A program made the position numbers and the translations under genes. The notes below the pieces were generated by a model. That model saw only the letters and a program-made list of their open reading frames with translations. It had not been told where the DNA came from and searched no databases. From Thermoplasmata archaeon (GTDB taxonomy: Archaea > Thermoplasmatota > Thermoplasmata > GCA-020350865), in the NCBI GenBank assembly GCA_020348445.1, contig CP070751.1:4956303-5020302 (forward strand): a stretch of 64,000 bases of DNA, in the 5' to 3' direction. Below are positions 21,140 to 38,472 of this stretch, piece by piece (within the stretch, counting starts at the first letter, position 1; each line of letters begins with the position of its first letter).

Positions 21140-22453
21140 ATGGTTATGAGATTCAAATCCATAACATGGTTTGTGGGGCTTTCTGTCATATTATCTGTTG
21201 GACTCATACTTGCAACCGATTTGGTGATCCTAAATGCAGAAGGAGCTGAGCCGGATTTGTATTCAGAAGGGATCTGTGAGGAGTGTGATGAAGAGGATAA
21301 CATAAACTTTGACTTCGAAGTTATTTTTCAGGACGATGATGGTGATCCACAAGATGTTATTCTTTTCCTCAATGATGTGGAACATCCAATGGATCCAGAT
21401 CCATATGGGGATCCCGTGGAAGGGCAATACTTCTATGCCTCTTTCGAAGCATCAACCATCCATGATAATGATGAGTTCTATTATTATGCGGAGGATACCA
21501 CAGGTAATTTCGTGTACCTTGGTAATAGTGATGAGCCATTTTATGTGGGGGATTATTTGGGATGGGGTGAAAAACCGGTTATATCAAATCCCTACATTTA
21601 TTATGATGATGATACTAAGGATTATGTTTTTAATGTGACCTACCATGACGTGGAAGGCGATGAAGGATCTCTGACACTTTATCTCGATAATGAAACCAAT
21701 TATCGTGAATACGTGATGAATCCTACGGGAGGTAACCCAATTACGGGACAGAACTTCCAGGTCTCGGTTCCTGATTCAGAAATTAATGAGGATTGGGAAT
21801 TCTATATCGGGGCTGAAGACTCCAACGGCAGTTATGCATATCTGTACGACCCGAATGGAGATTACTTTGAAGTAAGGGATGTAATTGGACCGAAAGTGCC
21901 AGGAGATGGGGATGGTGGAGGAGATGAGGGGGGCGGGGATAAAGGTTTTGCGCTTCCCGAATTCCTAAACAATGCAGAGGTGATTGTTGGTATCATTGGT
22001 CTTGTGGCTTTGGGAGGCGGCTCTGCATATGGAGTTTGGAGAAGGAAAAAGAAACACGGGCGGTTCTCTGAGCTCTTGACACAGTTGGACGAGGTATACG
22101 GATCCTTTAAGTTGAATCCAAAAAGATGCGAGTTAGAACTTGAGAAGATGAAGGTCACGATCAACGAAGATCTTAAGAAAAACACGATTGACCAGAACAA
22201 TTATTCCATCCTTAAAACACGCATCGATGAGATAATGGGGGAAATCAGGAGTGAAACCATCAAATCCGAGGTTTCAGAGCTTCCAAAGGATATAGAGATT
22301 AAGATCAAGGACATGCTCATAGATGGTGAGATAACAAGGAAGGAATACGACAAGATTTTACCCATTATAAAAGGTTCCGACATGGCCACCGATGACAAGG
22401 AAAAGATGAAGAAGATGGTGGAGTCCTGGGTAAAAGAGGATCAATCCAAGTAG
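21140..22453 (+). CDS. Single-pass membrane protein: duplicated acidic extracytoplasmic domain, Gly-rich linker, TM, cytoplasmic coiled-coil tail
   Basis: Signal/TM 'ITWFVGLSVILSVGLILA'. Two related units ('FEVIFQDDDGDPQDVILFLNDVEH...EFYYYAEDTTGNFVYL' and 'FNVTYHDVEGDEGSLTLYLDNETN...EFYIGAEDSNGSYAYL'). Second TM 'VIVGIIGLVALGGGSAYGVW'. The tail has SHOCT-like 'GEITRKEYDKILPII'. Confidence 0.55.
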   Translation: MVMRFKSITWFVGLSVILSVGLILATDLVILNAEGAEPDLYSEGICEECDEEDNINFDFEVIFQDDDGDPQDVILFLNDVEHPMDPDPYGDPVEGQYFYASFEASTIHDNDEFYYYAEDTTGNFVYLGNSDEPFYVGDYLGWGEKPVISNPYIYYDDDTKDYVFNVTYHDVEGDEGSLTLYLDNETNYREYVMNPTGGNPITGQNFQVSVPDSEINEDWEFYIGAEDSNGSYAYLYDPNGDYFEVRDVIGPKVPGDGDGGGDEGGGDKGFALPEFLNNAEVIVGIIGLVALGGGSAYGVWRRKKKHGRFSELLTQLDEVYGSFKLNPKRCELELEKMKVTINEDLKKNTIDQNNYSILKTRIDEIMGEIRSETIKSEVSELPKDIEIKIKDMLIDGEITRKEYDKILPIIKGSDMATDDKEKMKKMVESWVKEDQSK

Positions 22454-22507: not shown

Positions 22508-23305
22508 TCAGTTCACATATTCCAATGACCACACATCAGTTACTCCAGTATAATGAATCCAAAGACCCTGCCCTGGCTTTAATAGATTGAGATTATCAAG
22601 AGAATAGGAACCAGGATCCCAGCTTTCCCATATTCCCGAACTCGCATTGTACCACATAACCATGTCCACTTCTGCAGGCAAATCCGAGGAATCTGGCAGT
22701 CTTTTAAGAAGGGAAGGATAACCTACTAGATTCCAGCCATTATTTAACGTGATCTGGTTGACATATCCGATATCAGGTGCAGTGCCGTGGACATATAGGG
22801 TGGTTCCCAGGGGATTGGTTATGTGAATCCACAATCCCATGTGTTTGTCAGCGTCTGTTAAATCGTTTAGCGAGGATGGCTTTGAGGTATGATTGTGTTT
22901 CCAGGTATCGACAGAGTCGGTAGTATCAAACCACTGAACAGCGTTATAATTTCCCGATATGTTCTCCAACGCCTTCCCTAGATTAGTATCGGTCTGATTT
23001 AGAGGCAAAGAGATCAAGTTCCAGCCGGGCTCCAAATCTATTGAATATTTTGTAGTGAATGTAAAATCGGAACTTATGCTATAATTACCTGAATTATTGT
23101 ATGAACTCACTCGAAAATGATAAAGCCTTCCAGGTTCTAATCCCATCAAATTTATATTATGTGAGATCACTTTAGAACCGTCATAAATAGTTGAGCCATA
23201 TGCTGTGGAAAAACCGTATTCAACTGTGCTGTTAGATGGCATATTGCTTTTCCAGGATATTGTTGCCGTGATATCTGAAATTTCTTTTGCTCGAATATCG
23301 AAGAT
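22508..23305 (-). repeat. Conserved FN3 + C-terminal-domain cassette, copy D
   Basis: See 9606-10403. The 183-aa domain differs from copy B at 23 positions by my count. Confidence 0.85.
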
Positions 23306-24625
23306 TCCAAAAGGATTTGTCCCATCATAGCGTTGCGCATAAACTCCTGAGCCATGTCCATCATGATCCGGTCCCCATGATACCCATGCTATGATAAAAT
23401 TGCCGTTTGGATCTGTTGCTACAGAGGATATATATTGATTGTCTGTTGTGTGTGTATTCACCTGAAATTCTCCTCCAAATGGATTTGCATTGCTATCGTA
23501 TTTTTGTGCATAAACTCCCCAATCGCTTCCATCCTGATACTGTGATTCCCAGGTAATAATAAAGTTACCGTTTGAATCCATTGCTGCTGATGGAAACCGT
23601 TGATTATTTGGGGTATATGAATTCACTTGAAATTCCTCACCTATTGTATTGCCATTGTTATCATATCGCTGAGCATAAATTCCTTCGCCGCTTCCATCCT
23701 GACCTGACGAATCCCATGTAATCATGAAGTTACCGTTTGGATCCATAGCTGCCGATGGAAATTTTTGATCATTTGTTATGTATGTATTCACCTGAAACTC
23801 AACACCCAGAGGATTACCATTTTTATCATAACGTTGGGCAAAAATCCCATAACCATCACCGTCCTGCTCCTCAGATGTCCATACGATAACAAAGTTACCA
23901 TTTGAATCCATTGCTATTGATGGCCAAGCTTGCCCTGCGGTCGTGTAGGTATTCACCTGAAACTCTACACCCAGAGGATTGCCGTTGCTATCATAACGCT
24001 GTGCAAAAATCCCATAACTATCACCATCTTGGTCGTCTGATATCCATGTAATGACAAAGTTGCTATTCGAATCCATAGCTACCGAAGGAAACCATTGGTG
24101 GCCGGTTATGTATGTGTTCACCCTAAACTCTTCTCCTAGGGGATTTCCGCTATTATCGTAGCGCTGTGCATAAATCTCCCATTCATTTCCACCTTGCCCA
24201 TAGGATTGCCAAGTAATCACAAAGTCACCACTTGAGTTCATGGCTATGGAGTGGGTACTTTGACTACTAGTTGTGTAGGTGTTGATTCGAAATTCGTTAC
24301 CTTCCTCTCCCCCTCTTAAAGCGCCTGGAGGAGGGGTAAGTTCATTACCATTTGAATCGTATCGCTTGGCAAATATTCCCAACATATCACCATCTTGCCA
24401 TTGTGAAGACCAGGTAATTATAAAATTACCGTTAGAGTCCATAGCTGTTGATGGAAGAGATTGCTCATATGTTATGTAAGTATTCACTTGAAACTCCCCC
24501 CCTACAGGTTCTCCCCTATTTGTAATGGTTATCATGAATGTAGAAAGTGTTGTGATAATGAATAGAACAGCAATAGGTATTACCCACAATTTTGTTCTCT
24601 TGGTTCTACCTTCCTTTACTAACAT
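22508..24625 (-). CDS. Secreted/surface protein, 7-blade 'FxVNTYT' propeller + FN3 + conserved C-terminal domain (paralogue D)
   Basis: Seven repeats counted. The conserved start context 'GGGTAAAAATG' favours the ATG at 24625 ('MLVKEGRTK'); the ORF could extend to the ATG at 24646. Confidence 0.8.
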   Translation of the reverse strand: MLVKEGRTKRTKLWVIPIAVLFIITTLSTFMITITNRGEPVGGEFQVNTYITYEQSLPSTAMDSNGNFIITWSSQWQDGDMLGIFAKRYDSNGNELTPPPGALRGGEEGNEFRINTYTTSSQSTHSIAMNSSGDFVITWQSYGQGGNEWEIYAQRYDNSGNPLGEEFRVNTYITGHQWFPSVAMDSNSNFVITWISDDQDGDSYGIFAQRYDSNGNPLGVEFQVNTYTTAGQAWPSIAMDSNGNFVIVWTSEEQDGDGYGIFAQRYDKNGNPLGVEFQVNTYITNDQKFPSAAMDPNGNFMITWDSSGQDGSGEGIYAQRYDNNGNTIGEEFQVNSYTPNNQRFPSAAMDSNGNFIITWESQYQDGSDWGVYAQKYDSNANPFGGEFQVNTHTTDNQYISSVATDPNGNFIIAWVSWGPDHDGHGSGVYAQRYDGTNPFGIFDIRAKEISDITATISWKSNMPSNSTVEYGFSTAYGSTIYDGSKVISHNINLMGLEPGRLYHFRVSSYNNSGNYSISSDFTFTTKYSIDLEPGWNLISLPLNQTDTNLGKALENISGNYNAVQWFDTTDSVDTWKHNHTSKPSSLNDLTDADKHMGLWIHITNPLGTTLYVHGTAPDIGYVNQITLNNGWNLVGYPSLLKRLPDSSDLPAEVDMVMWYNASSGIWESWDPGSYSLDNLNLLKPGQGLWIHYTGVTDVWSLEYVN

Positions 24626-24655
24626 TTTTACCCTTCCATACCTCATCGAGATTCA

Positions 24656-25230: not shown

Positions 25231-25953
25231 ATGAGTGAGCAAATACGCAAAGATGAGTTCAGAAAGTTACTTGCACGTCAGGCAAAATTAATTAAACCTG
25301 CAAGAGACTGGCTGCTCTCAACAAAGCTGAACTTTCCTTTTTCAAGTGTATTGGAGGTAGGCTGTGGCTGCGGTGATGTGTTGCATGAACTTGGTGAGGA
25401 TAAATGGTCCGTGGGTTTGGATATCGAATTAGAGCTTCTAAAGGAACTGAAAGCAGAAGGTGTTTTGGGGGATGGGCATTTTCTGCCTTTTCAAAATGGT
25501 TCTTTTGATCTTGTATACTGTCATTTTTCCATTATGTGGTTTTCTGATCCAGCTGCAGTTATTAGAGAGATGGCGAGGGTAGCAAAAAAGTCAATATGCT
25601 GTATGGCAGAGTACGATTATGGGGCCAGACTGGATTTTCCAGATGAATTCGGATATATCAGGGATAAGCTAGCCGAGGGAATTATCTCGGATGGAGGAGA
25701 TCCGTATGCTGGAAGAAAATTAAATCAGTATTTCAAAGAAGCCAACTTGGAAGCTGATGTGGGTGCTTACTGTCATGTGATGGATTCCCAGCAACTTCTT
25801 GCTGGATTTGAGGATGAATGGAGCTTTATTCAAGAATTTACGGACATGGATCCAGGTAAAATGGATGACCTTAAAAAAAGTGAATTTGAATCAATCTCCT
25901 CAGGGACTCGCTTTCTATTCACTCCTGTTTTTTACGCTATAGCTAGAAAATAG
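25231..25953 (+). CDS. Class I SAM-dependent methyltransferase
   Basis: Motif I 'VLEVGCGCGDVL', 'GLDIE', and post-II 'FDLVYCHFSIMW'. Confidence 0.8.
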   Translation: MSEQIRKDEFRKLLARQAKLIKPARDWLLSTKLNFPFSSVLEVGCGCGDVLHELGEDKWSVGLDIELELLKELKAEGVLGDGHFLPFQNGSFDLVYCHFSIMWFSDPAAVIREMARVAKKSICCMAEYDYGARLDFPDEFGYIRDKLAEGIISDGGDPYAGRKLNQYFKEANLEADVGAYCHVMDSQQLLAGFEDEWSFIQEFTDMDPGKMDDLKKSEFESISSGTRFLFTPVFYAIARK

Positions 25954-25987: not shown

Positions 25988-27349
25988 CTAGGTGCTTGAA
26001 AAACCCTCAGTACAAAGATAGTCGCCCGCTTCTATACTCAATGGACATCCGCCACCGCAGAGTCCAAGTAATTCGCAATCTCCACATTTTTCGGGAAGAT
26101 GTGCACGGGATCTGATATCGGCACATAACGGAGCCTGCCATATCTTTTCCCAGGGGTCCTTTAAAATGTTACCCAATGGCTTGTAATAGGATTGACAGGG
26201 CAGAACATCACCGTTGGGCTCGCATGCCAGATTGATTGAGCAGGCCGTGCAATTTCTAATTCCAAGATCCAGGTTAATTGGATTTAGCTCGCAATATGGT
26301 GTTGGTGTGTACCAGACAAAATCTATACCATTAGCCTCGGTAAATTGTTTTACCTCATTTAAAAGAGTTTTCAATTCCTCGAAAGAAACTGTCTTGGCAT
26401 TTTTACCTGCGCCTGCGCGAATAAGTGAATTGCAGGCGATATTTTTTACACCTAATTCATGAAGGAATTTTACGGTATACAGAATCTCTTCGAAGTTGTC
26501 CTTCATGATCGTGGTGTTCGTGGATACGTACACATCTTCTTTTATTACCGTCTTCAGCCCGGCTATGGTTTCTTCCCAAGCTCCTTCGTCTGAGACTATT
26601 TTATCATGCGTTGCGGAATTATGCGATTCCACTGTGATTTGTACATGGTCCAGGCCTAACTCGATAAGCTCTTTTAGGTAACCTGGTTTGGAGAGTTTCC
26701 TGCCATTTGTCACAAGGCCGGTTATTTGACCATTGTCTTCGGATTTTGCAATCAGTTCAGGGAGGTCTTCTCTAAGTGTGGATTCACCCCCAGTAAAAAC
26801 GATATGGGGTATGCCGTAATCCCACATCTTATCCAGCGCCGTCTTCCATTGCTCGGTTTTTAATTCTTCTTTTACCCTGTCCTCGTTGTAGCAGTGGATG
26901 CATTTGTTCTGACATTTATAGGTCAAGGCTATATCCATTCTAAAGGGGGCAGGAAGCGCTAAATCGCGGCTGTCATAGGGCTTAAATTCGATATCCAGCT
27001 CAATTTCGTGCTTTCCTTTTGTAAGGCCGAGAAGTTTTTTTCTGATGATTTTGTGATCTGATTCCAGCTTGTCCTTATCCGCCTTTCTGTAGCGTTTTTT
27101 GAACTCCCTGACCATTTCCTCGGAACTTCTGTTTTCAATACAATATTTTGCATGTTCAACTGCCGTGCCATTTAGATATATCATCTTGGAGGCATCCATT
27201 ATCAAAACGCCTGATCCTGAGTCATCAACCCTAAGATGGAACCTGTGCCCCGAAAATTCGCCTTGTCCGTCAAACTTGTGGATTCCAGGAGCAATCAAAG
27301 GTTTAGGGCTAAAAATCCCCTTTAAAAATCCTTGCGATTCCCCCTTCAC
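25988..27349 (-). CDS. Radical SAM/SPASM-domain enzyme with PqqD-like (RRE-like) N-terminal domain
   Basis: Radical SAM cluster 'CQNKCIHC' (CxxxCxxC). SPASM region 'CTACSINLACEPNGDVLPC' and 'CGDCELLGLCGGGCP' (Cx2Cx5Cx3C). The N-terminus 'LNGTAVEHAKYCIENRSSEEMVREFKKRY...DKLESDHKIIRKKL' resembles PqqD. The preferred start is the GTG at 27349, overlapping the upstream TAG stop and preceded by 'GGGGGTGGAAGG'. The ORF track's TTG at 27394 is an alternative. Confidence 0.85.
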   Translation of the reverse strand: MKGESQGFLKGIFSPKPLIAPGIHKFDGQGEFSGHRFHLRVDDSGSGVLIMDASKMIYLNGTAVEHAKYCIENRSSEEMVREFKKRYRKADKDKLESDHKIIRKKLLGLTKGKHEIELDIEFKPYDSRDLALPAPFRMDIALTYKCQNKCIHCYNEDRVKEELKTEQWKTALDKMWDYGIPHIVFTGGESTLREDLPELIAKSEDNGQITGLVTNGRKLSKPGYLKELIELGLDHVQITVESHNSATHDKIVSDEGAWEETIAGLKTVIKEDVYVSTNTTIMKDNFEEILYTVKFLHELGVKNIACNSLIRAGAGKNAKTVSFEELKTLLNEVKQFTEANGIDFVWYTPTPYCELNPINLDLGIRNCTACSINLACEPNGDVLPCQSYYKPLGNILKDPWEKIWQAPLCADIRSRAHLPEKCGDCELLGLCGGGCPLSIEAGDYLCTEGFSST

Positions 27350-28959
27350 TACCTTCCACCCCCTGCACAGGCACAAGCACAGGCACAGGCACAAGCACAG
27401 CCTCCACCAGAGAATCCACCTCCAGAGCCACCTGAAGGCAGTGGATTTGTCGTATTGACCACATCATGAGTAAAGGACGTTAAATTGTGCACAACAGATT
27501 TGCTGATCATATTTGTGCTTTTCACAAATCCTTGGGACCAACTTACTAATGGATTTGGTCCGGGTGATGCGGCGGCACCGCCAGGTCCGGAATATGGGTA
27601 CCATATCCTACTCTCAAGCAGTATGAATCTATGTTTGTAAGTGGGATCAAGTAACAACCATTCATCATTCTTTGAAGCATTTGATACTGCAATCTCGGGA
27701 GTTCCGCTTTTTTCAACTTCTGACCAGGCAAGTTCCACAATTCTCTTATAATATTTCTTGGTAGCGGCATAATCAAAACCATGGATTTTACTTTGAACAG
27801 AATCGATGAGTTCTTCGAGGACATTCCCCAATCCTTCATTATCTATAAAACCAGTGGGTTCAATTGCTTTTTCCACGAACTTCAATTCGTAATCCCGTGA
27901 TAATTTCTCTTTATATATAACAACAACTCGCAGAGGTTTTTCTGGAAACACCTTTACTGCCTCTTTTTTTTCCATCCCAAAAATTATCATGGTGGCAACA
28001 ATATTAAGTGGTTTTTCCAATACAATTGCCGCTTCCACAGCAGTCAATCCAATACGGGGACCCGCACCTTTAACTGACAGTTCTGGTTCAAAATAATCAA
28101 GACGTCTTCGGTATTTAGTGTAAAATATAGATCCAAATAGGGAAAATATAAAAATTACTGTACAGCAAGCAAACATCCCAGGACCTGCTATTAAAATGCC
28201 TTCATAAATGCCCTGCCAGACCCTGTATCTGTAATGCACTTCCACATATTCATCTGGGAAAGAAACGCCAACATCGCATTCTCCGGACTCAATTAGAGAA
28301 GGAGATTTTGAGCCGTAATCCCAGTGGTAAACAAGCCTTTCTTTGTTATCATCCCAATCAATGGATGTATAAGGATGGTCCTCAAGATATTTGACTTTTG
28401 AAGGATCATCAAGTCCTTCTGGGAGATACACCCAAACCTGTAGGTCCTCTGTTTTGCCGCTTTGATACTCATTGCTGAACCATGTAGGTCGGAATCTTAT
28501 GCCAGCATAACCAGTGTTTTTAACATCGTCATATACCATATGTGGATTATCGGCCTCAAAGAAAACCTGTATTTCAGAGCCCCTGCTTCTAGGGCTGAAC
28601 TCCACTGCTATTCCCATGGGGATATATGGTGATTGGAGGATTGAATGTCTTACTCTATCACCATCAATGTAAACTACAGCGTTGGCTGAATCTAATGTGT
28701 AGAAGGAATTTGGCATTCCTATGTCAACTCCGTCCAGGGTGCCTAAAATATCAATGAACTCGAACTCATATTCTATATGAATGGAGCCGTCTTTTTCAAT
28801 GTATACAAAACAATGTTCTTTGACCGTCTGGAATTGGTAATCGTCTTGGGCTTTGGCATTAATATTTTCTTGGGGGATGGGTGCCGATTGTAAAATAATT
28901 AAGAAGAATACAAAGATACTTAATAAGGCAAATAATGTAACTTTGTTGTACTTCACCAT
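27349..28959 (-). CDS. DUF2207-like single-pass membrane protein with Gly-rich, (Cys-Ala)6 C-terminal tail
   Basis: Signal peptide 'LFALLSIFVFFLIILQSA'. Extracytoplasmic N-domain ('VYIEKDGSIHIEYEFEF'), one TM, and a cytoplasmic domain ('GLTAVEAAIVLEKPLNIVATMIIFGMEKK'). The tail is 'SGGSGGGFSGGGCACACACACACAGGGR*'. This layout is as I recall for DUF2207 and is not HMM-verified. Confidence 0.6.
   Translation of the reverse strand: MVKYNKVTLFALLSIFVFFLIILQSAPIPQENINAKAQDDYQFQTVKEHCFVYIEKDGSIHIEYEFEFIDILGTLDGVDIGMPNSFYTLDSANAVVYIDGDRVRHSILQSPYIPMGIAVEFSPRSRGSEIQVFFEADNPHMVYDDVKNTGYAGIRFRPTWFSNEYQSGKTEDLQVWVYLPEGLDDPSKVKYLEDHPYTSIDWDDNKERLVYHWDYGSKSPSLIESGECDVGVSFPDEYVEVHYRYRVWQGIYEGILIAGPGMFACCTVIFIFSLFGSIFYTKYRRRLDYFEPELSVKGAGPRIGLTAVEAAIVLEKPLNIVATMIIFGMEKKEAVKVFPEKPLRVVVIYKEKLSRDYELKFVEKAIEPTGFIDNEGLGNVLEELIDSVQSKIHGFDYAATKKYYKRIVELAWSEVEKSGTPEIAVSNASKNDEWLLLDPTYKHRFILLESRIWYPYSGPGGAAASPGPNPLVSWSQGFVKSTNMISKSVVHNLTSFTHDVVNTTNPLPSGGSGGGFSGGGCACACACACACAGGGR
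27364..27400 (-). repeat. Hexanucleotide microsatellite (TGTGCY)6 encoding (Cys-Ala)6
   Basis: The plus strand reads GCACAG GCACAA GCACAG GCACAG GCACAA GCACAG. It lies at the junction of two coupled genes. Confidence 0.9.
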
Positions 28960-29330
28960 TTTGGTTTTTCCTCCAGCTCGTAAACTAAATCACAGTAACC
29001 ACATTTTACTATCACCCCTCCCGAAATAATGCCAAGATCCCTTTCAGATAACTTTGCACCGCAACCTTTACATTTGAGGTTCTTGATAACTTTTTCACCT
29101 GAGAGATCTACTTTGACTGTCTGACTTACGAGTTTTGGTTGCACGGCCTTTGCATAATCAATTCTATAGATTATCAGGAAGAATCCGCAGCCAATTATGA
29201 TCATTATTATTCCGATTGCTATATTCATTACTTCTCCCGAGCTTCCCATAAGGAAAATTAAACCAAGAAGCAGTAAAATGATGCCGAGAAAAACAAGTAC
29301 AAATCTATAGGAAGAATTCATGATACACAA
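28953..29330 (-). CDS. 2-TM membrane protein with C-terminal zinc ribbon
   Basis: Two TM helices, then 'CKGCGAKLSERDLGIISGGVIVKCGYCD'. The stop overlaps the start of the DUF2207-like gene (ATGGTGA, 28953-28959). Confidence 0.5.
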   Translation of the reverse strand: MCIMNSSYRFVLVFLGIILLLLGLIFLMGSSGEVMNIAIGIIMIIIGCGFFLIIYRIDYAKAVQPKLVSQTVKVDLSGEKVIKNLKCKGCGAKLSERDLGIISGGVIVKCGYCDLVYELEEKPKW

Positions 29331-29378: not shown

Positions 29379-29717
29379 TTATAGATAGAACTTTCGTACA
29401 AATACGAGATCAACTAATAGGATTATGCACAATATTCCACCAAGATAGCTTTCTATGTTTACATTTACCCAATCCAATATAAAGATTATTGTTCCAATAA
29501 CTCCAATAATGAGAGCTGCAACCCATGCGACTCTTTTAAGAAGATACAGGCCCAAGGCTGTGACCATGGAAGCTAGGGCAAGAAACAATGGTAATAATGC
29601 GATCATGATACCGTCTTCGAGTACATACAGTATGCCCGGTATTGCAAACAAAACGCCTATTGCAATCATAAGAAGTGTAACGTATTTTACACCCTTTGCT
29701 CTCGGTCCGAGGCTCAA
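29379..29717 (-). CDS. Small 4-TM membrane protein
   Basis: 112 aa, almost entirely hydrophobic helices. Same strand as the downstream operon, 48 nt upstream of it. Confidence 0.45.
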   Translation of the reverse strand: MSLGPRAKGVKYVTLLMIAIGVLFAIPGILYVLEDGIMIALLPLFLALASMVTALGLYLLKRVAWVAALIIGVIGTIIFILDWVNVNIESYLGGILCIILLVDLVFVRKFYL

Positions 29718-29966: not shown

Positions 29967-30182
29967 ATGAGCGTAACCATTTCCATAAGAGTCGATGAAA
30001 AAATTAAAGAAAGCATTGAAGAAATGGGATACAAACCTGGGGAATACCTCAAAGAAATCCTTATTAGGGAGTTGAAGAAGGAACGCGCAAGAAACACACT
30101 ATCTTGGCTTAAAACACATAGATTGAAAACAAAGGGAAAGTCCACTGAAAAACAGATTCGGGAGGATAGGGAGTCGCGATGA
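29967..30182 (+). CDS. vapB: VapB-type antitoxin (ribbon-helix-helix/CopG-like)
   Basis: 71 aa, 'MSVTISIRVDEKIKESIEEMG...'. ATGA overlap with the PIN gene. Confidence 0.7.
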   Translation: MSVTISIRVDEKIKESIEEMGYKPGEYLKEILIRELKKERARNTLSWLKTHRLKTKGKSTEKQIREDRESR

Positions 30183-30598
30183 AATTAGTTCTGGATTCAT
30201 CTGTGATCGCCAAACTCTTCTTTAAAGAGGCAGGATCAGATTCTGCAATAAAGCTCATGGAAATTGGCGATGAAAAGGATATCGAATTTTTGGCATCGGA
30301 TTTGGTAATCTATGAGGTGGGCAATACCATCTGGAAAAATCTAAGAAGAAAGAATAAGGACGGAGGCAGATACATCAAATTGCTTTTTTTGTTGAACATC
30401 GATTTTATATCTATTGATGATAGTTTGGCTTCTGAAGCGCTAGATGTAGCACAAAGATATAATATCACATATTATGATGGAGTTCATATGGTAGTAGGTA
30501 AGAAAAACAAAGCTACTTTGGTGACGCAGGATAAAGTACTTTTAAAGAAATTTAAATCCACCTCATCTATTAAAGAAGTTTTAGAAAGAATTGAATAA
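30179..30598 (+). CDS. vapC: PIN-domain ribonuclease toxin VapC
   Basis: 'LVLDSSVIAKLF' (first acidic residue), 'IYEVGNTIWK', 'YYDGVHMVV', 'LVTQDKVLLKK'. These give the typical spacing of four acidic residues. Confidence 0.85.
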   Translation: MKLVLDSSVIAKLFFKEAGSDSAIKLMEIGDEKDIEFLASDLVIYEVGNTIWKNLRRKNKDGGRYIKLLFLLNIDFISIDDSLASEALDVAQRYNITYYDGVHMVVGKKNKATLVTQDKVLLKKFKSTSSIKEVLERIE

Positions 30599-31140: not shown

Positions 31141-32454
31141 TCACCTGAGCCATGCGAAATCAGTGCCATCCGAGGCGGCATGAACAATCACCACTATCAC
31201 CGTGAGAATAGTCAACAGCAGATGCAACCTTCTCCAATTATCTGCACCCCAACGAGCAATCAATGATTTCTGATACAATCCTACAAAACCCAGTGCACCG
31301 AGAACAAAGAAGGCAAAAGAGCCGAAGGCCAAGCCTCTCAATGTGGTGGCATGGGGGCTGAAGGGTAGTAGCATTCCATGAACAAATGAGAGGAGTATAA
31401 GAACAAACGAGATTCTGCAGTGCCAACTGGTCCTATTCCCTGCACCTTTCAAAACACCCTCGATTCGAATGCGCATCGGTTTGTACAATCCACTCAATAC
31501 AATGGAAACAATAAGAACCACTGCCGAGATGATACCAGTTGTCCTCTCGATATCGATTATGGAGATGGCCTGCTCCCATTCACGTTCAGGTGGATTGTAA
31601 ACATACCTATCACCAACCTCCAATTCTGAAGAGGCGTCATATGTGTACAGCTCACTGTCTGGATGAGAAGGGTCATCATGGTCATGATGTGCAGTTCCAC
31701 TGACGATCACCAAGACGGTGTTACCACCCTTAGCAATTGACCTAAGAGACCAGGAAAAGGTATGCTCATCCCCTGGCCCCAGATCAGGACCGCTTTGCCT
31801 GCTTTTTTCTAGGTCGTATTGGACATCAATTGTGATTGAAAACGAAATGCTGGGGGTACCTACAATATAGTGCACCTCAGCCCTATAGTCCCCATAACCT
31901 GCCTCTCTCAGATCATCTGCATCAAGAGTGAGCTCAGGATTGGCACCAGCACCTCCTACCGCCCAAGCAGTGTCGCCATCGGGACTGTAAACATTGAGAT
32001 CGATATTGTTAACTTCAAAGGGCCCTTCGTCGCCATCTACCTTTATAGTGGCCTCAGTGGCGTTGTCCTCAACAGGGAAAAGGAAGGTATCTGAGTTCGA
32101 AGAAAGGCTCACCGAACTGGATTCCTCCATATGGTATGGCTCAGTTGTTTCAGTTGTAAATTCCAAATTGGGAGCCTTTGAAAGATCCAGTAGGGCAGAA
32201 AGACCCAAAACATCGTGCTTCCACTCGTCGCGAACAATGACCTTGTACTCGAATTCGTAATTATCAGGCACCTCAGAGGGGGCGTCAATTGTGAGGGTAA
32301 ATGCTTCAAAATCCTCATGGCCCTCGTCACCTTCCTCGCATTCCTCCTCACCTTTTTCGCCTTCAGGGATAGCAAGGAGAATTCCCATTGCTATAACGTG
32401 AACCACTAAGACTGTGATGATAACTGTGTAGAACTTGTTTTGGTTCTTCTTCAT
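31141..32454 (-). CDS. Membrane protein: extracytoplasmic acidic domain + C-terminal 4-TM module with two H-x13-H pairs (di-haem cytochrome b/ferric-reductase-like)
   Basis: N-terminal anchor 'FYTVIITVLVVHVIAMGILLA'. TM helices 'WHCRISFVLILLSFVHG' and 'RLHLLLTILTVIVVIVHA' each have two His residues separated by 13 residues. Confidence 0.5.
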   Translation of the reverse strand: MKKNQNKFYTVIITVLVVHVIAMGILLAIPEGEKGEEECEEGDEGHEDFEAFTLTIDAPSEVPDNYEFEYKVIVRDEWKHDVLGLSALLDLSKAPNLEFTTETTEPYHMEESSSVSLSSNSDTFLFPVEDNATEATIKVDGDEGPFEVNNIDLNVYSPDGDTAWAVGGAGANPELTLDADDLREAGYGDYRAEVHYIVGTPSISFSITIDVQYDLEKSRQSGPDLGPGDEHTFSWSLRSIAKGGNTVLVIVSGTAHHDHDDPSHPDSELYTYDASSELEVGDRYVYNPPEREWEQAISIIDIERTTGIISAVVLIVSIVLSGLYKPMRIRIEGVLKGAGNRTSWHCRISFVLILLSFVHGMLLPFSPHATTLRGLAFGSFAFFVLGALGFVGLYQKSLIARWGADNWRRLHLLLTILTVIVVIVHAASDGTDFAWLR

Positions 32455-33162: not shown

Positions 33163-36100
33163 TTATAAATTGATCTGTCCCGACACTCCGCAGGAAGGAC
33201 ATTTTATTGTGTTTGGTCCCTTTTTAAGGTTTATCTTGAAGGCATTTTTGCACTTAGGGCATCTGATGGTCTTGGTGAAAGTGGGCTCTGTCTCGGTTGG
33301 AACAGGAGGTGGTGGTGCAGGGGGAGGAGGTGGTGCTGCCACGGGGGGAGGAGGCTGACTGATAGGTTGCGGTTGTTCAACTTGCGGAGTCACAACAGGT
33401 GCAGCTACTTCTGCGGGAGGTACAGGCGGTGCTGCTGAGACTTCTTGTGCAACAGGTGCTACGGCTGGGATCACAGGTGGTATAACCTCGGTTTTCTTCT
33501 TTTTCCTTGTTAGAAGCATCACCACAAGAAGCACAACAAGGACGATGATGATCACCAAAAGAAGAAGATACATCATCATTTTGTCGCCTTCATCTGCATC
33601 ATTTGTTGTTGTTCCATTATCTTTCTCACCGTCATCTTCTTCATTGGGATCTGATCCTGCTTGCTGCTCCTGTAGATTTGTTAAACCGTCATTATCGGGA
33701 TCATCCTCAGGCCCGTAATTTAAATTGCCGAAATGCTCCTGCTCCCAGCTGTCGAGCAGTCCATCTGAATCGCTGTCTTCTTCATCTACCTCGATTGTTA
33801 TGTTGATCATATCCTGACCTGTGCCATCGTCTTTGTCGGTCACTGTCAAAGTCACGGGATAATCTCCTGGCTCATCGTATGTATAAGTCGGGGATTCGGA
33901 AGAGGAGGTTTGACCGTCCCCGAAATCCCATAAAAAGGAGAGAGACGATGCTGAATCTTCGGAATCTGAAACAGTGGCTGAAAACGATACTGTCAGATCA
34001 TTCTGATTCTCTGATGTATCGATATTCACGGTGGGAATGTTGTTTTTGATGTCCAATGCATTGTATTTGTACATCAAATAACTTGAATCATCACCATCAC
34101 TGAAGCTCACTCGGAAGCTGTAATCCCCTAAATCAGCATCTTTCGGAGGAGATAACTCAACCTGCCACTGCCCACTGATGTACATTGGTGTGCCAAGATA
34201 GGAGGTATCCCAGAAAAATTCATCTAGGGAGTACTCGAACGTGGGAATGAGATCATCCTCATCCTTTTCGTCGTCCTGAGCATTGGCATAAAGGTATATC
34301 ACATCTTCTCGAAAGACCTCAGTATCAGATAAGCTAAGATCCAATACACTTGGGATGTTGTTTTTTACCTCAAGGCTCTCGTTGAGATAATACCAGTTGC
34401 TGTAATCACTATCCGAATCCAGGAGCCTTACCCTGAAATCATAGTCCCCGATCGCAAAAGTGGTAGAAGGTGTAAAGCTCACCTCGAAGCGGTTGTTCGA
34501 ATAACTGTAGCTTGCGCCTGAAAGATCGTTCCACGTGGAAGAACTGGAGGGTTTATACTGGAATGTAGACGTCATATCAGAAGGTAAGTTCTCTAAATCG
34601 GAACCCGTGGCATAGATAACAACTGACTCGGTTCTGTAGATCTGAGAGGATGTAACATCTATCGTGTCCACGGAGGGTAAGCTGTTTTGCACTGTTATTA
34701 TTCCCGATAGAACAAGCCAATTAGAAAAACCACCGTTGGAATCATAAAATCCTACCCTGAACTCATAATCACCCAATGTCATATCAAAGGGAGGGGAGAA
34801 TTCGATTCTCCATTGCTCATTAATGTATGTCTTTCCCGAAAAAGAGGTGTTATACCAGGAGCCACTTCCTGCGATTCGATAGTAAAATTCTGTTTTTAAA
34901 CTATTCTCGGGATCCTCGATGTCAGATCCATTTGCATAGATGTAAAGCGAGGAGCCTCGAACGACCTCAAAGCCAGAGGAGGATATGCTATCAGCCTGTG
35001 GAAGATTGTTGTTCACGACAACGCTTTGGTTTTCATAGATCCATTCACTAAAACTCAAGGCAGAATCGTTGAATCTAATCCTGAAATCGTAGGTGCTCAA
35101 CAAAGCATTTGCCGAGGGAGTGAAATTTATTCTCCACTGGCCCCCTACATAGACGGGCTCAAAGAGATAGTTTGTGGTCCAGATCGTACTTCCTGATTCC
35201 TTGCACTCAAAGTGCGGTGTAATACCAGCTTCGGAATCCTCAACATCATCCCCGTTTGCATATATGAATATCGTCTCTGTACGAAGCACATTTGAGGAGG
35301 ATATGAGAATATTGGTAGTGGTTGGAGCGTTGTTTTTTACCTCAACACCATCATAGACATATATGAAGTCACTTAAATCTCCTGCAGTATCGTTGAACCT
35401 CACCCTGAAATCATAGGTGCCCAGGACAGCATCATAAGAAGGAGAGAAGGTAATTCTCCACCGCCCTCCAGTATACGTGGGGGCAGACAGATAATCGGTT
35501 GCCCAACCAGTGCCCTCAGGATCATTGTATTCGAATACCGCATCGAGCAGATCCTCAGAATCCTCGGTATCTGTTCCATTGGCATAAATGTAAATGGATT
35601 GTGTTCTGAATACTGTATCGCTTTCCACTATCAGGTCCAAAACTTCTGGTGGATTATTTTTCACTTCAACATTATCATAAACATATAAAAAGTCACTTAA
35701 ATCTCCTGTTGTATCGCTGAATCTCACCCTGAAATCGTAGGTGCCCAGGGCAGCATCATAAGAAGGAGAGAAGCTAACCATCCACTGCCCTCCGGTATAC
35801 GTGGGGGCAGACAGATAATCAGTTGCCCAACCAGTGCCCTCAGGATCATTGTATTCAAATATCGCATCGAGCATATCCTCAGAATCCTCTGTATCCATTC
35901 CATTGGCATAGATGTAAATGGATTGCGTTCTGAAGACAGAGTTACTTTCCATTGTCAGATCCAAAACCACAGGGGGATTGTTTTCCACCAAAACGCTATC
36001 GTTGGCATATACGAAGCCACTAAATGCTTCTAGGGTATTTTTGAATCTCACCCTTAAGTCGTACCAGCCCAGAGGTGCAAGAACAGACGGGGAAAAGGGT

Positions 36101-38472
36101 ATGGTCCAGTAGCCTGAAGGGGGGGATCCAAAATAAGTTGCCGGGCCCGAAAAATAAGTGGTGTTCCATATGGAGACATTGGGGTCCTGGTACTCGAAAA
36201 ATGGTGTGAGTTGATCTTCTAAGTCTTGGGAATCACTGCAATTTGCGTGTATGAAGATGGTGTTGTTTCTCAGAAGGCTTTGGGGGCTTCCGCCATGGGG
36301 TGAAATATCAATGGCCACAGGCTTGGATTTTATCACGACTGTAACATTGCGGCTCTTCCAAATCACTGGACGAGACATTCCAGATTCAGCTCCTTTTTGG
36401 GCACTCACATTATGAGGTGTTGTGTTATTTTTACCAGCCGAGGTCTGGACATATTCTGTTGCAATGATCCATTTAATCCAACCGTTGTTGCCAAATCCTG
36501 TGTTTCCGCTCCATTCTGTGACTCCAAAGAGGTCATTTACCATGACATCTGCATCGTCCACTCCAAAACCTAAAAAATCTTCCACCTTAACATCCAGGAA
36601 CCATTTGACTTTGAGGTCCGATTCAGAATCCTCAACACGGACAGAGGAGTTGTCATGGGAAGTGTTGAGGGCTATAACATGGGAGTTGCTAGTCAAGTTG
36701 AAGTCATATGAGATGGAGGAAATGGAGGAGTTGGTGATGTTCAATATTGAGTCTATGCACGTTATGCCGTACAGGTTGTTGTTGAAAGTTGAGTTGATGA
36801 TCTCAATATCCCTGCTCTCTATGGAAACGATTCCACTAGCCGCATTGTCAGATACTATGTTGTCCTCAAAAATACCAGATCCTTTGAAATAATCAAAATA
36901 TACGCCATCCCAATTTTGGCTGCCTGAAAAATCGTTGTTCTTAACTGTAAAACTTCCGCCATTTAACGTGAATAGATAGAAATTATAGTCCCAGTTGTTT
37001 TTGACTTCATTATTCGTCATGGTAAGAGATATGCTATCATAAGAATCAAATATCACGCCTGGTCCAAAGTTATCGTTGAAGTTATTGTTGTGAATCGAGC
37101 AGGTTTGGTTTTTAAACGAAACAGCATAAAGTGCATAATCACCACTTAGCACCTCGTTTCTCTCCGAAGTAAGATATAAGTTCTCGGCAGACCAGATTTC
37201 TATGCCTGATCCGCTGGTGTCGACGATCCTGTTATCTGTGATTTCTGCATATACGGTCCTGTTTCCCGGGGTATTATAGAAATAATCAATTAATATTCCT
37301 CCTATGTTATTCCACAACTCGTTATTTCCAACGCGGTATCGGCTCTCAGCATCCTCAGCATAGGAATACATAGCTCCCCAAGTGGTGTTGGTAATATTGT
37401 TGTTATACACCTCAGCATTGATAGGGCCCCAGTTTTCCACATAAATGCCGTCGTTATTGTCCTGTATTTTGTTATGGGAGATGTTGTAAGTGATATTTGT
37501 TCCAAGTCCCATCCAGTTATTGGTGAGCCAGATACCGTAATAATTACTTGTCAAGTTGTTGTTCAGAATTGTGGCGTTGAGTGTGGCTCTGTCTCCCTCA
37601 GCTATGATAAATATCCCTTCATAACCGTTTTTTTCTATGTTGTTGTCGTTTATCGTGGCTATGATATCCTCCAAACCCGAGAATATGAAGATACCGTTTT
37701 CTGTATTATTTATTATATCGTTACCAGATAAAGTGGCTGTGATTGAGCCGATATCTGAACTGATATCAATACCGCCGAATCCTCCACGGTTGTCCATGAT
37801 AACATTATCTGTGACTGAAATGGTGAGGTCAGCAAGCACAGCCTCTATCTTGATTCCAGATTCGCTGTTATTTGAGACGTTGTTGTTTGTGAGGGTAATA
37901 TCAGGATGTGTGCCATTTATACCCCAGACATTTTTCGTTATTATGTTATTGTCGATTGTGATGGGATTAACAGAATCGATATGGATGCCTTCTTCTGCAT
38001 ATTCTATGTGGCAAAATTGAATTTCTCCTCCTCCGCCAGAGAAATCCAATGAGCTCCAATTCCCGGGACCAGGTGTACTGCTGTTTGAGGTGAATGTGAT
38101 TCTAGAACCAAGCGTGCCCACGCAAGAAAGGGTCCCTTCAACTATTATGCTAAAGGATCCGTTGAAGTAAATGTTGCAGCCGGCTTCGATTGTCAAGGTA
38201 TAACCAAAGTTCACAGTGTAATTTCCCTCGATATAATGATCTGGTACAGAGTTTGCCCATCTGACTTGAGAAAGGATTGGGTCCGCATCATTTGGCCCGT
38301 TATCCTCATCTGAGCAGCTGGCAGAACCAGTATTCCCGTGTGTGTTTCCAGATACCATAGGATATAAGGTTGGGATAACTAGCACAACAATACTTGCAAG
38401 CAACGTAAAGGTTACGGTGAGTGTGAATATCCTCCTCAAAAGAGGCCCACTTTTTTTAGATTTAGGAGACAT
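33163..38472 (-). CDS. Giant surface adhesin-like protein: signal peptide, right-handed beta-helix repeats, 7 Ig-like repeats, PKD domain, Ca-binding-type Asp repeats, TM, Pro-rich cytoplasmic tail, C-terminal zinc ribbon
   Basis: PbH1-like 'NN[IL]..N...GI.[IL]' periodicity over aa 150-600. Seven units of about 108 aa. PKD 'FLWDFGDGQTSSSESPTYTYDEPGDYPVTLTVTDKDDG'. 'DSDSDGLLDSWE...DPDNDGLTNLQE'. TM 'MMMYLLLLVIIIVLVVLLVVMLL'. Tail 'PPPPVAAPPPPPAPPPPVP'. Zinc ribbon 'CPKCKNAFKINLKKGPNTIKCPSCG'. Confidence 0.85.
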   Translation of the reverse strand: MSPKSKKSGPLLRRIFTLTVTFTLLASIVVLVIPTLYPMVSGNTHGNTGSASCSDEDNGPNDADPILSQVRWANSVPDHYIEGNYTVNFGYTLTIEAGCNIYFNGSFSIIVEGTLSCVGTLGSRITFTSNSSTPGPGNWSSLDFSGGGGEIQFCHIEYAEEGIHIDSVNPITIDNNIITKNVWGINGTHPDITLTNNNVSNNSESGIKIEAVLADLTISVTDNVIMDNRGGFGGIDISSDIGSITATLSGNDIINNTENGIFIFSGLEDIIATINDNNIEKNGYEGIFIIAEGDRATLNATILNNNLTSNYYGIWLTNNWMGLGTNITYNISHNKIQDNNDGIYVENWGPINAEVYNNNITNTTWGAMYSYAEDAESRYRVGNNELWNNIGGILIDYFYNTPGNRTVYAEITDNRIVDTSGSGIEIWSAENLYLTSERNEVLSGDYALYAVSFKNQTCSIHNNNFNDNFGPGVIFDSYDSISLTMTNNEVKNNWDYNFYLFTLNGGSFTVKNNDFSGSQNWDGVYFDYFKGSGIFEDNIVSDNAASGIVSIESRDIEIINSTFNNNLYGITCIDSILNITNSSISSISYDFNLTSNSHVIALNTSHDNSSVRVEDSESDLKVKWFLDVKVEDFLGFGVDDADVMVNDLFGVTEWSGNTGFGNNGWIKWIIATEYVQTSAGKNNTTPHNVSAQKGAESGMSRPVIWKSRNVTVVIKSKPVAIDISPHGGSPQSLLRNNTIFIHANCSDSQDLEDQLTPFFEYQDPNVSIWNTTYFSGPATYFGSPPSGYWTIPFSPSVLAPLGWYDLRVRFKNTLEAFSGFVYANDSVLVENNPPVVLDLTMESNSVFRTQSIYIYANGMDTEDSEDMLDAIFEYNDPEGTGWATDYLSAPTYTGGQWMVSFSPSYDAALGTYDFRVRFSDTTGDLSDFLYVYDNVEVKNNPPEVLDLIVESDTVFRTQSIYIYANGTDTEDSEDLLDAVFEYNDPEGTGWATDYLSAPTYTGGRWRITFSPSYDAVLGTYDFRVRFNDTAGDLSDFIYVYDGVEVKNNAPTTTNILISSSNVLRTETIFIYANGDDVEDSEAGITPHFECKESGSTIWTTNYLFEPVYVGGQWRINFTPSANALLSTYDFRIRFNDSALSFSEWIYENQSVVVNNNLPQADSISSSGFEVVRGSSLYIYANGSDIEDPENSLKTEFYYRIAGSGSWYNTSFSGKTYINEQWRIEFSPPFDMTLGDYEFRVGFYDSNGGFSNWLVLSGIITVQNSLPSVDTIDVTSSQIYRTESVVIYATGSDLENLPSDMTSTFQYKPSSSSTWNDLSGASYSYSNNRFEVSFTPSTTFAIGDYDFRVRLLDSDSDYSNWYYLNESLEVKNNIPSVLDLSLSDTEVFREDVIYLYANAQDDEKDEDDLIPTFEYSLDEFFWDTSYLGTPMYISGQWQVELSPPKDADLGDYSFRVSFSDGDDSSYLMYKYNALDIKNNIPTVNIDTSENQNDLTVSFSATVSDSEDSASSLSFLWDFGDGQTSSSESPTYTYDEPGDYPVTLTVTDKDDGTGQDMINITIEVDEEDSDSDGLLDSWEQEHFGNLNYGPEDDPDNDGLTNLQEQQAGSDPNEEDDGEKDNGTTTNDADEGDKMMMYLLLLVIIIVLVVLLVVMLLTRKKKKTEVIPPVIPAVAPVAQEVSAAPPVPPAEVAAPVVTPQVEQPQPISQPPPPVAAPPPPPAPPPPVPTETEPTFTKTIRCPKCKNAFKINLKKGPNTIKCPSCGVSGQINL
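34045..36335 (-). repeat. Seven tandem ~324-nt coding repeats (Ig-like domains); units 2 and 3 (35335-35982) are near-identical
   Basis: The unit signature is 'R[TG][QE]S[IL]YIYANG.D.ED.E..L...FEY......W......G.....G.W...FSP......G.Y.FRVRF.D'. Confidence 0.8.

Follow-up and report, generated by a model that had tools for sequence, protein, structure and literature searches.

A putative protein-tail maturation module of Archaea and Bacteria: a radical SAM/SPASM enzyme linked to a membrane protein with a conserved Cys-Ala tail

In this work we have analyzed a stretch of 64,000 nucleotides (nt) from a Thermoplasmata archaeon (contig CP070751.1, positions 4,956,303 to 5,020,302; hereafter the window), which carries a four-gene module encoding a radical S-adenosylmethionine enzyme with a SPASM domain (rSAM), a 536-amino acid (aa) membrane protein terminated by a (Cys-Ala)6-Gly-Gly-Gly-Arg tail, a zinc-ribbon protein and a methyltransferase. 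Comparison of the module across both prokaryotic domains indicates that it is probably devoted to maturation of a protein tail: the rSAM, predicted to possess the recognition element (RRE) used by enzymes acting on peptides that are ribosomally synthesized and then modified after translation (RiPPs), would modify the Cys-Ala (CA) tail of the membrane protein encoded next to it. Such a relation had been proposed in a first-pass annotation of the window, and it is supported by the comparative tests described here, namely retention of the tail among homologues and linkage of enzyme and tail in both directions. The tail is, on these comparisons, very probably the target of the enzyme.

Nearly all that is known of RRE-guided rSAM/SPASM enzymes concerns the production of cofactors or of small peptides that are secreted. 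In the window, machinery of this kind seems to be reserved for the tail of a large membrane protein. If this is true, the module would represent a new class of substrate and, on a repeat of only two residues, possibly a crosslink or other chemistry that is new, of interest for enzymology and peptide engineering; the logic of RiPP biosynthesis (a recognition element plus a core) would be used in cells for whole-protein modification; and the DUF2207-like membrane proteins, which are poorly understood and whose C-terminal tails are enigmatic, would gain a first functional handle. In its fullest form, to which we give an even chance, the proposal states that a RiPP-type rSAM of Archaea and Bacteria installs a novel modification on an integral membrane protein of full length, at the (Cys-Ala)n tail, be it a thioether ladder, alternating epimerisation or other chemistry of Cys and Ala, followed by methylation; the outcome would be no secreted natural product but a ribophorin-like/DUF2207-like receptor with a cytoplasmic appendage of a new kind, covalently structured.

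Results and discussion

Conservation of the Cys-Ala tail

The membrane protein ends SGGSGGGFSGGG-CACACACACACA-GGGR, that is GGG(CA)6GGGR. The degenerate DNA motif (TGYGCN)3 occurs in the window at the tail site only, with no occurrence expected from 100 shuffles. Tails of the (CA)n...GGGR type are present in 175 of the 189 homologues examined, the 14 without one being mostly fragments, so that the orthologues do keep the tail singled out in the first-pass annotation. It is invariant or nearly so in homologues of 27-68% identity, and its columns are the best conserved of the family alignment, in which the rest of the family is 27-40% identical. The number of Cys residues per tail varies between 4 and 10 and the terminal ...GGGR is itself nearly invariant. 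Positions other than Cys are occupied by Ala in 868 cases and by other residues in 37 (868/905 Ala), which argues that Ala itself matters in the tail, beyond the thiols.

The codons of the repeat vary synonymously (Cys as TGC in 271 cases and TGT in 213; Ala by all four codons). Free synonymous variation combined with a fixed peptide points to selection acting on the peptide and not on a DNA repeat, and the reading of the CA repeat as a DNA microsatellite was rejected on this ground. The tail comes in dialects: (CA)5-6GGGR in Thermoplasmatota, (CA)4G(CA)3GGGR or (CA)3G(CA)4GGGR in Chloroflexota and CVCACAxCACACACV[SG]CACACA[GH]GGAR in Bathyarchaeia. No description of a C-A repeat class, of a two-residue C-A period with a fixed GGGR end or of the four-gene module was found in Pfam, NCBIfam release 20 or the literature searched, a scope outside of which most subscription journals lie and which gave nothing but DNA primers and papers on unrelated subjects; this agrees with the first reading of the window, in which no described C-A target class had been recognized.

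Linkage of the enzyme and the tail gene

A genome scan seeded by the rSAM alignment only, in a species-representative collection with one genome per species, gave 586 relatives, of which the best 80 loci were examined; the 66 with at least 1.7 kb upstream of rSAM were judged for the presence of a tail. Their hosts are Thermoplasmatota (Methanomassiliicoccales and others), Bathyarchaeia, Chloroflexota (Anaerolineae and others) and the source of one metagenome-assembled genome of Nitrospirales; the module is found in relatives of methanogens (Methanomassiliicoccales), in Bathyarchaeia and in Chloroflexota from sediments, peat and digesters. An open reading frame (ORF) with a CA tail ends no more than 150 nt from rSAM in 60 of the 66 loci according to a regular expression, which missed the (CA)3G(CA)3 tail of locus L082; with L082 included, the CA-tail gene is immediately upstream in 61 of 66. 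It is placed somewhat further upstream in L055, L083 and L084, and lies within 7 kb in 64 of the 66 loci.

The reciprocal scan of metagenomes was seeded only by DNA encoding (CA)3GGGR followed by a stop codon and returned 127 tail ORFs. Among the 96 long enough to judge, 93 are homologues of the membrane protein of the window, so that the CA tail is essentially private to this protein family. rSAM is encoded immediately downstream of the tail ORF in 71 of 103 metagenome loci, and most of the other tail-seeded loci have it 0.6-2 kb downstream or else upstream in a rearranged operon. The rearranged order is rSAM, x, a second rSAM-like gene (the 'pseudo-rSAM' described below), one or two tail genes and methyltransferase, and it goes with the (CA)3G(CA)4GGGR dialect. 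Two tandem CA-tail paralogues accompany a single rSAM in L071, L075, L078, L089, L095, L098, L119, L150, L166 and L179, an arrangement like that of multi-precursor RiPP clusters. The survey of rSAM neighbourhoods for CA tails suggested in the first-pass annotation has yielded such co-occurrence, and so has the reciprocal scan.

Because the linkage survives change of host at the level of domain, change of gene order and tandem duplication of the tail gene, we regard it as strong comparative evidence of functional coupling. It could also be supposed that the two genes are neighbours through inherited synteny, with no coupling of function, and that rSAM is a housekeeping enzyme. Many of the best 80 loci do come from related Thermoplasmata and Methanomassiliicoccales, and shared ancestry inflates the counts; the pairing nevertheless spans Archaea and Bacteria and outlasts operon rearrangement, gene insertion and duplication of the tail gene, and the stop and start codons of the two genes overlap in the window, which makes simple synteny very improbable.

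Domain architecture of the radical SAM enzyme

The rSAM matches the Pfam families Radical_SAM (1e-23) and SPASM (4e-9). In an alignment of 59 rSAM homologues the Cys residues C146, C150 and C153 of CQNKCIHC are invariant, and those of the SPASM region (C353, C367, C370, C385, the CX2CX5CX3C motif formed by C422, C425, C431 and C435, and C446) are invariant or nearly so; this set is sufficient for two predicted auxiliary [4Fe-4S] clusters. The SPASM match exceeds the Pfam gathering score in 59 of the 59 family members. An AlphaFold2 (AF2) model of the enzyme (predicted local distance difference test score, pLDDT, 81.6; predicted TM-score 0.84) consists of an N-terminal domain, the radical-SAM barrel and the SPASM region, in this order. 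The N-domain is built of beta-strands (residues 23-60) and three helices (64-111) modelled with high pLDDT, and its motif HRFHLRVD...G.GVL.VDASK...LNGTA is strongly kept among the homologues. The Pfam PqqD model matches 9 of the 59 family members at E<=0.01 (best 1.7e-6). The first-pass annotation had taken this segment for a PqqD/RRE domain: the RRE-like fold is backed by the structure model, while the Pfam match of the window protein stays below threshold, as given further on.

The relatives of known structure point in the same direction. The rSAM profile finds SkfB as its best match among the PDB sequences (E 5e-29, the alignment beginning in the N-domain), followed by PqqE (E 6.5e-25), SuiB and CteB; in a Foldseek search of the PDB the best match is SuiB (TM-score 0.64 over the full length), followed by SkfB, PqqE and CteB, and the alignments to SuiB and SkfB cover the N-terminal domain including the RRE. 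Since the closest solved relatives are all RRE-using peptide maturases, the predicted architecture corresponds to a RiPP maturase guided by an RRE, the latter being weak at the level of sequence.

No curated NCBIfam family accommodates the enzyme, the best ones (AhbD, NirJ2, TIGR04053 and PqqE) giving about one quarter to one third of their cut-off scores. The bit scores are 126 for AhbD and 121 for NirJ2 against cut-offs of 500, 114.7 against 381 for PqqE (E 4e-33) and 65.5 against 265 for MftC (E 4.5e-18). The identity as AhbD or NirJ, suggested by the best NCBIfam E-values, was rejected because of scores at about a quarter of the cut-off and the lack of a tetrapyrrole context. Membership of a cofactor-maturation family, raised in the first-pass annotation as the outcome that would speak against tail modification, is not the case (115-126 bits against 381-500), and genes for heme, PQQ (pyrroloquinoline quinone) or mycofactocin are not among the conserved neighbours of rSAM, which encode the tail protein, the zinc-ribbon protein and the methyltransferase.

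The membrane protein

The AF2 model of the membrane protein (pLDDT 85) and the hydropathy profile divide it into the segments listed in Table 1. The first-pass annotation described a single-pass protein; the transmembrane helix was found as stated, and an N-terminal signal/anchor helix accompanies it, so that two hydrophobic helices are present. The transmembrane helix is directly followed by the basic residues YTKYRRR, which suggests a cytoplasmic position of the C-terminal half and of the tail, and since the tail is modelled as disordered it would be reachable by an oxygen-sensitive cytoplasmic enzyme.

A word-index search gave 137 homologues, and an exhaustive profile search 1457 representatives of clusters formed at 50% identity (E<=1e-3), 458 of them at E<=1e-30. 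Neither Pfam nor NCBIfam contains a match to the 536-aa protein, and a search of the PDB sequences with it returned noise only. The label 'DUF2207-like' given in the first-pass annotation does not stand for the window protein, which has no match to DUF2207 (PF09972) even at E 0.1; the N-terminal domain of DUF2207 is weakly matched by 10 of 64 relatives (best 6.4e-6) and one homologue is named DUF2207 in NCBI, and the resemblance is a remote one. The layout of DUF2207 proteins is similar (outer beta-sandwich, transmembrane helix or helices, cytoplasmic part and Gly-rich C-terminal tail). Ordinary DUF2207 tails are Gly-rich and are not known to contain a Cys-Ala repeat or to be linked to an rSAM. 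The only functional paper on DUF2207 that was found deals with stress tolerance of Streptococcus mutans (PMC10457818).

The top Foldseek matches of the membrane protein are a chain of the oligosaccharyltransferase complex and the N-domain of M1 aminopeptidases. The former, the top fold match in the PDB (8b6l_O, 6s7o_E; E 1.7e-10), is a human chain of 560-580 residues, probably ribophorin I, in which the same layout recurs: a beta-sandwich outside, a single transmembrane helix and a helical domain in the cytosol. M1 aminopeptidases/LTA4H possess an N-domain similar to the beta-sandwich.

The family alignment contains invariant residues in both the outer and the inner domains, so the 500-aa body is kept together with the tail. 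Close to the tail the AF2 model has a helical hairpin (helices 470-489 and 493-504), and each of the three tail classes keeps motifs in this region (Thermoplasmata and Chloroflexota, ...FT..VT..TNP.P; Bathyarchaeia, ...DFAN.IV...NNIVKN...FAN). The hairpin 470-504 would be the best candidate for a leader-like element recognized by the RRE.

Conservation of the body also bears on the possibility that the whole membrane protein is a giant leader and that its tail, once modified, is released by cleavage to give a small peptide or redox cofactor, in the way PQQ is made from PqqA and mycofactocin from MftA. The PQQ and mycofactocin systems act at or near the C-terminus of their precursors and include methyltransferase or peptidase steps. 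PqqE and MftC, detectable relatives of rSAM, belong to these systems, and an S26 peptidase is encoded downstream in one bacterial locus. Against this, a conserved body of 500 aa is unexpected in a disposable leader, none of the genes conserved in 83 loci encodes a peptidase or exporter, and the PqqE and MftC scores are far below their cut-offs (114.7 against 381 and 65.5 against 265); we consider such a leader improbable.

Partner genes of the module

Two further genes accompany the enzyme and the tail protein. The zinc-ribbon protein has two transmembrane helices and a cytoplasmic CxxC...CxxC motif (C87/C90 and C110/C113); Pfam and NCBIfam gave nothing usable for it. By tblastn its gene was found upstream of rSAM in 63 rSAM-seeded loci, mostly at about -2 kb and on the same strand, and locus L001 of Anaerolineales has a full-length orthologue (31% identity, E 1e-18).

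Neighbours were clustered from greedily chosen non-overlapping ORFs of 83 loci. The methyltransferase clusters beside rSAM in 45 of the 83, in 36 of them convergently as in the window; by tblastn it was found in 57 loci, 74 loci having at least 900 nt downstream of rSAM. A full-length orthologue belongs to the bacterial operon L001 (30% identity, E 2e-29), and the gene is also present in tail-seeded metagenome loci. It is the fourth conserved member of the module. Its best match among PDB sequences is LahSB from a lanthipeptide cluster (6uak), a weak one (E 1.2e-6) confined to the Rossmann core. LahSB is a C-terminal carboxyl methyltransferase of a lanthipeptide pathway, and the match is to be taken as a lead only. 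A 112-aa membrane ORF (29379-29717) was considered as a fifth member and dropped, since the 80 genome loci contain nothing that corresponds to it.

Bacterial operons often contain in addition a paralogue of rSAM, the pseudo-rSAM, which is absent from the window. The example at 9453-10583 of L001 (Anaerolineales) is 32% identical to rSAM; its CX3CX2C motif and every SPASM Cys are replaced, and its PqqD/RRE domain is kept with a score above the Pfam gathering threshold. Many Chloroflexota loci (for example L087, L102, L113, L121 and L179) have a similar gene at a distance of 1.4-2.7 kb downstream of rSAM. Because the Cys residues for the Fe-S clusters are lost while PqqD/RRE is kept, the pseudo-rSAM is probably a catalytically dead helper in substrate binding.

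The paralogue is relevant to a further explanation, in which the tail is a string of metal-thiolate or Fe-S ligands at the membrane (a sensor, or an electron or sulfur relay serving rSAM), the true substrate is a lipid or small molecule and the membrane protein is a scaffold. This explanation seems unlikely, although it has points in its favour: the C-x-C pattern with 4-10 Cys per tail, hosts that all appear to be anaerobes, and an rSAM core resembling at a lower level the membrane-lipid and cofactor enzymes GDGT-MAS, MoaA and NifB. A ligand string would not be expected to come with a peptide-docking domain of RRE type, which is fused to rSAM and kept even in the Cys-less paralogue; metal-binding strings usually tolerate many spacers, whereas the spacer here is Ala in 868 of 905 positions; and no small-molecule pathway is encoded among the conserved neighbours.

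Proposed mechanism and its weighing

In the proposed mechanism the C-terminal half of the membrane protein would lie in the cytoplasm as a winged-helix/helical domain followed by a flexible Gly/Ser linker and (Cys-Ala)n-GGGR. The RRE would dock on the membrane protein, the probable site being the conserved helical segment that immediately precedes the linker, and rSAM would process the repeat iteratively by means of 5′-deoxyadenosyl radical chemistry and its two auxiliary Fe-S clusters. Abstraction of hydrogen from Ala could then lead to thioether crosslinks of sactionine type between Cys-S and Ala-C, turning a floppy tail into a rigid ladder. The methyltransferase would subsequently add one or more methyl groups, for example to the remaining thiols or to the carboxylate of the C-terminal ...GGGR, and the two-helix zinc-ribbon protein may act as an accessory membrane partner. 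Epimerisation of Ala or other thiol chemistry would fit the same model. Sactionine-type crosslinks are favoured because Cys and Ala are both fixed and the nearest characterized relative makes thioethers between Cys-S and C-alpha; Cys-Ala crosslinking is our best guess for the chemistry, a tentative one that takes up only part of the probability assigned to tail maturation as a whole.

Several observations weigh against this picture. The thioether proposal draws solely on analogy with enzymes of the SkfB, AlbA and CteB type, and the equally close relatives SuiB and PqqE form carbon-carbon bonds. C-x-C repeats are the classic ligand pattern of metallothionein-like metal-thiolate proteins. The Pfam PqqD match to rSAM (residues 51-99) reaches 18 bits (E 0.0035), below the gathering score of 23.4. 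The methyltransferase was not found near about one quarter of the loci. Finally, L073 was the only inspected exception without a tail gene within 7 kb. Together with L055, also from an uncultured bacterium, it forms a clade of rSAMs (43-44% identical) without an adjacent tail gene.

The rSAM gene of L073 and L055 is overlapped from upstream by a gene for another kind of protein, which has 176-261 aa and the C-terminus ...LGKRKVKKWLG, and the tail gene and methyltransferase of L055 are 2.6 kb away. The enzymes of this clade may have a different substrate.

Comparison with known systems

The closest parallels are the maturases of sactipeptides and ranthipeptides. SkfB, AlbA and CteB share with the window rSAM the same RRE/radical SAM/SPASM-twitch layout, the NCBIfam alignments of AlbA and SkfB reach into its N-domain, and in sactipeptide systems the Cys-rich substrate is encoded next door, as it is in the module. 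The identity to these enzymes is only about 20%, however, and the NCBIfam cut-offs for sactipeptide maturases lie well above the scores obtained (75.8 bits against 850 for AlbA, 71.6 against 300 for SkfB and 89.5 against 625 for StsB). Sactipeptide precursors are secreted and 30-60 aa long, whereas in the window the presumed substrate forms the end of an integral membrane protein of 536 aa; unlike those systems, the module includes no protease or exporter, and its core is a strict dipeptide repeat. The enzyme looks functionally like a maturase of sactipeptide/ranthipeptide type, yet it fails every family test that has a curated threshold.

SuiB, which forms the Lys-Trp crosslink of streptide, and PqqE of PQQ biosynthesis are SPASM enzymes acting on ribosomal peptides by way of an RRE, as proposed for rSAM; SuiB has the RRE fused to it, and PqqE obtains it from PqqD. 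Their carbon-carbon bonds are made on Lys/Trp or Glu/Tyr, residues that have no place in a tail of Cys, Ala, Gly and Arg only. The ACGX-, CXXX- and TVGG-repeat/TvgB systems predicted in silico embody the same concept of a SPASM enzyme iterating on a short repeat of Cys and small residues. The rSAM of the ACGX system (TIGR04340) is a detectable relative (E 1.8e-19), with 70.1 bits against a cut-off of 400. The substrates in these systems are short stand-alone peptides, in contrast to the membrane-protein tail of the module.

Whole proteins are modified by rSAM enzymes in the case of anSME acting on sulfatases and QhpD acting on QhpC. Both are examples of SPASM enzymes whose target is Cys of a folded protein and not of a free peptide. 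anSME, a fold relative of rSAM (TM-score about 0.5), differs in having no RRE, while rSAM has an RRE-like N-domain, and in needing a C/S-x-P/A-x-R motif. Formation of formylglycine of anSME type was set aside, since no Cys in ...CACACAGGGR has P/A at +2 and R at +4.

Organization of the locus and its surroundings

The coordinates of the module and of the features described above are collected in Table 1. The stop codon of the zinc-ribbon gene overlaps the start of the membrane-protein gene (ATGGTGA), and the TAG stop of the latter (27351-27349) and the GTG start of rSAM at 27349 have a G in common (TAGTG), the DNA across the end of the tail reading ...TGT GCA GGG GGT GGA AGG TAG TG A.... Just 5′ of the GTG start sits GGGGGTGGAAGG. 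The tight coupling of the three genes noted in the first-pass annotation is confirmed by both overlaps, and the features quoted there are all present in ORFs of the window at the positions given for them: CQNKCIHC, CGDCELLGLCGGGCP, LNGTAVEHAKYCIENRSSEEMVREFKKRY and the tail SGGSGGGFSGGGCACACACACACAGGGR*. The methyltransferase gene is convergent with rSAM, 34 nt from its stop codon. Intergenic gaps of 34 and 48 nt leave no room for a small precursor gene at the module, in keeping with the earlier remark that none was seen. The protein P0121 ('radical SAM protein [Thermoplasmata archaeon]') is 100% identical to rSAM and likewise comprises 453 aa from a GTG start. A longer rSAM ORF with a TTG start (to 27394) was rejected, its extension being the CA repeat read out of frame.

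Table 1 Features of the module in the window
Feature	Position (nt, or residues where stated)	Strand	Remarks
Zinc-ribbon gene, two transmembrane helices	28953-29330	minus	125 aa; first gene of the conserved module
Membrane-protein gene with CA tail	27349-28959	minus	536 aa
rSAM gene (RRE / radical SAM / SPASM, predicted)	25988-27349	minus	453 aa, GTG start
Class-I SAM-dependent methyltransferase gene	25231-25953	plus	240 aa; Pfam Methyltransf_11 3e-14
CX3CX2C motif for the radical-SAM [4Fe-4S] cluster	26891-26914	minus	C146, C150, C153 (CQNKCIHC)
SPASM domain	26012-26293	minus	residues 353-446
RRE-like (PqqD-like) N-terminal domain	27020-27286	minus	residues ~22-110; four beta-strands then three helices
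N-terminal signal/anchor helix	membrane-protein residues 6-25	minus	hydropathy and AF2
Extracytoplasmic beta-sandwich	membrane-protein residues 43-235	minus	AF2
Long helix with transmembrane segment	membrane-protein residues 247-287	minus	hydropathy and AF2
Winged-helix and helical domain, predicted cytoplasmic	membrane-protein residues 307-504	minus	AF2
Disordered Gly-rich linker and tail	membrane-protein residues 510-536	minus	AF2
Amphipathic helical hairpin	27448-27552	minus	residues ~470-504, ends ...FTHDVVNTTNPLP; 15-25 residues before the tail
(Cys-Ala)6-Gly-Gly-Gly-Arg C-terminal tail	27352-27399	minus	residues 521-536; predicted cytoplasmic, disordered

Just upstream of the module lies a VapBC-like toxin-antitoxin pair (29967-30598, plus strand), in which a 71-aa ORF without a Pfam match overlaps (ATGA) the gene for a 139-aa PIN-domain protein (Pfam PIN 2e-13). 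The module is flanked by genes for large predicted surface or membrane proteins at 22508-24646 (minus strand), 33163-38472 (minus), 21140-22453 (plus) and 31141-32454 (minus). One flanking protein of 712 aa contains about eight 'FQVNTYT...GNF.I.W' repeats and an fn3 domain; another, of 1769 aa, has many repeats and, besides a C-terminal transmembrane helix, a segment rich in Pro and a terminal zinc ribbon.

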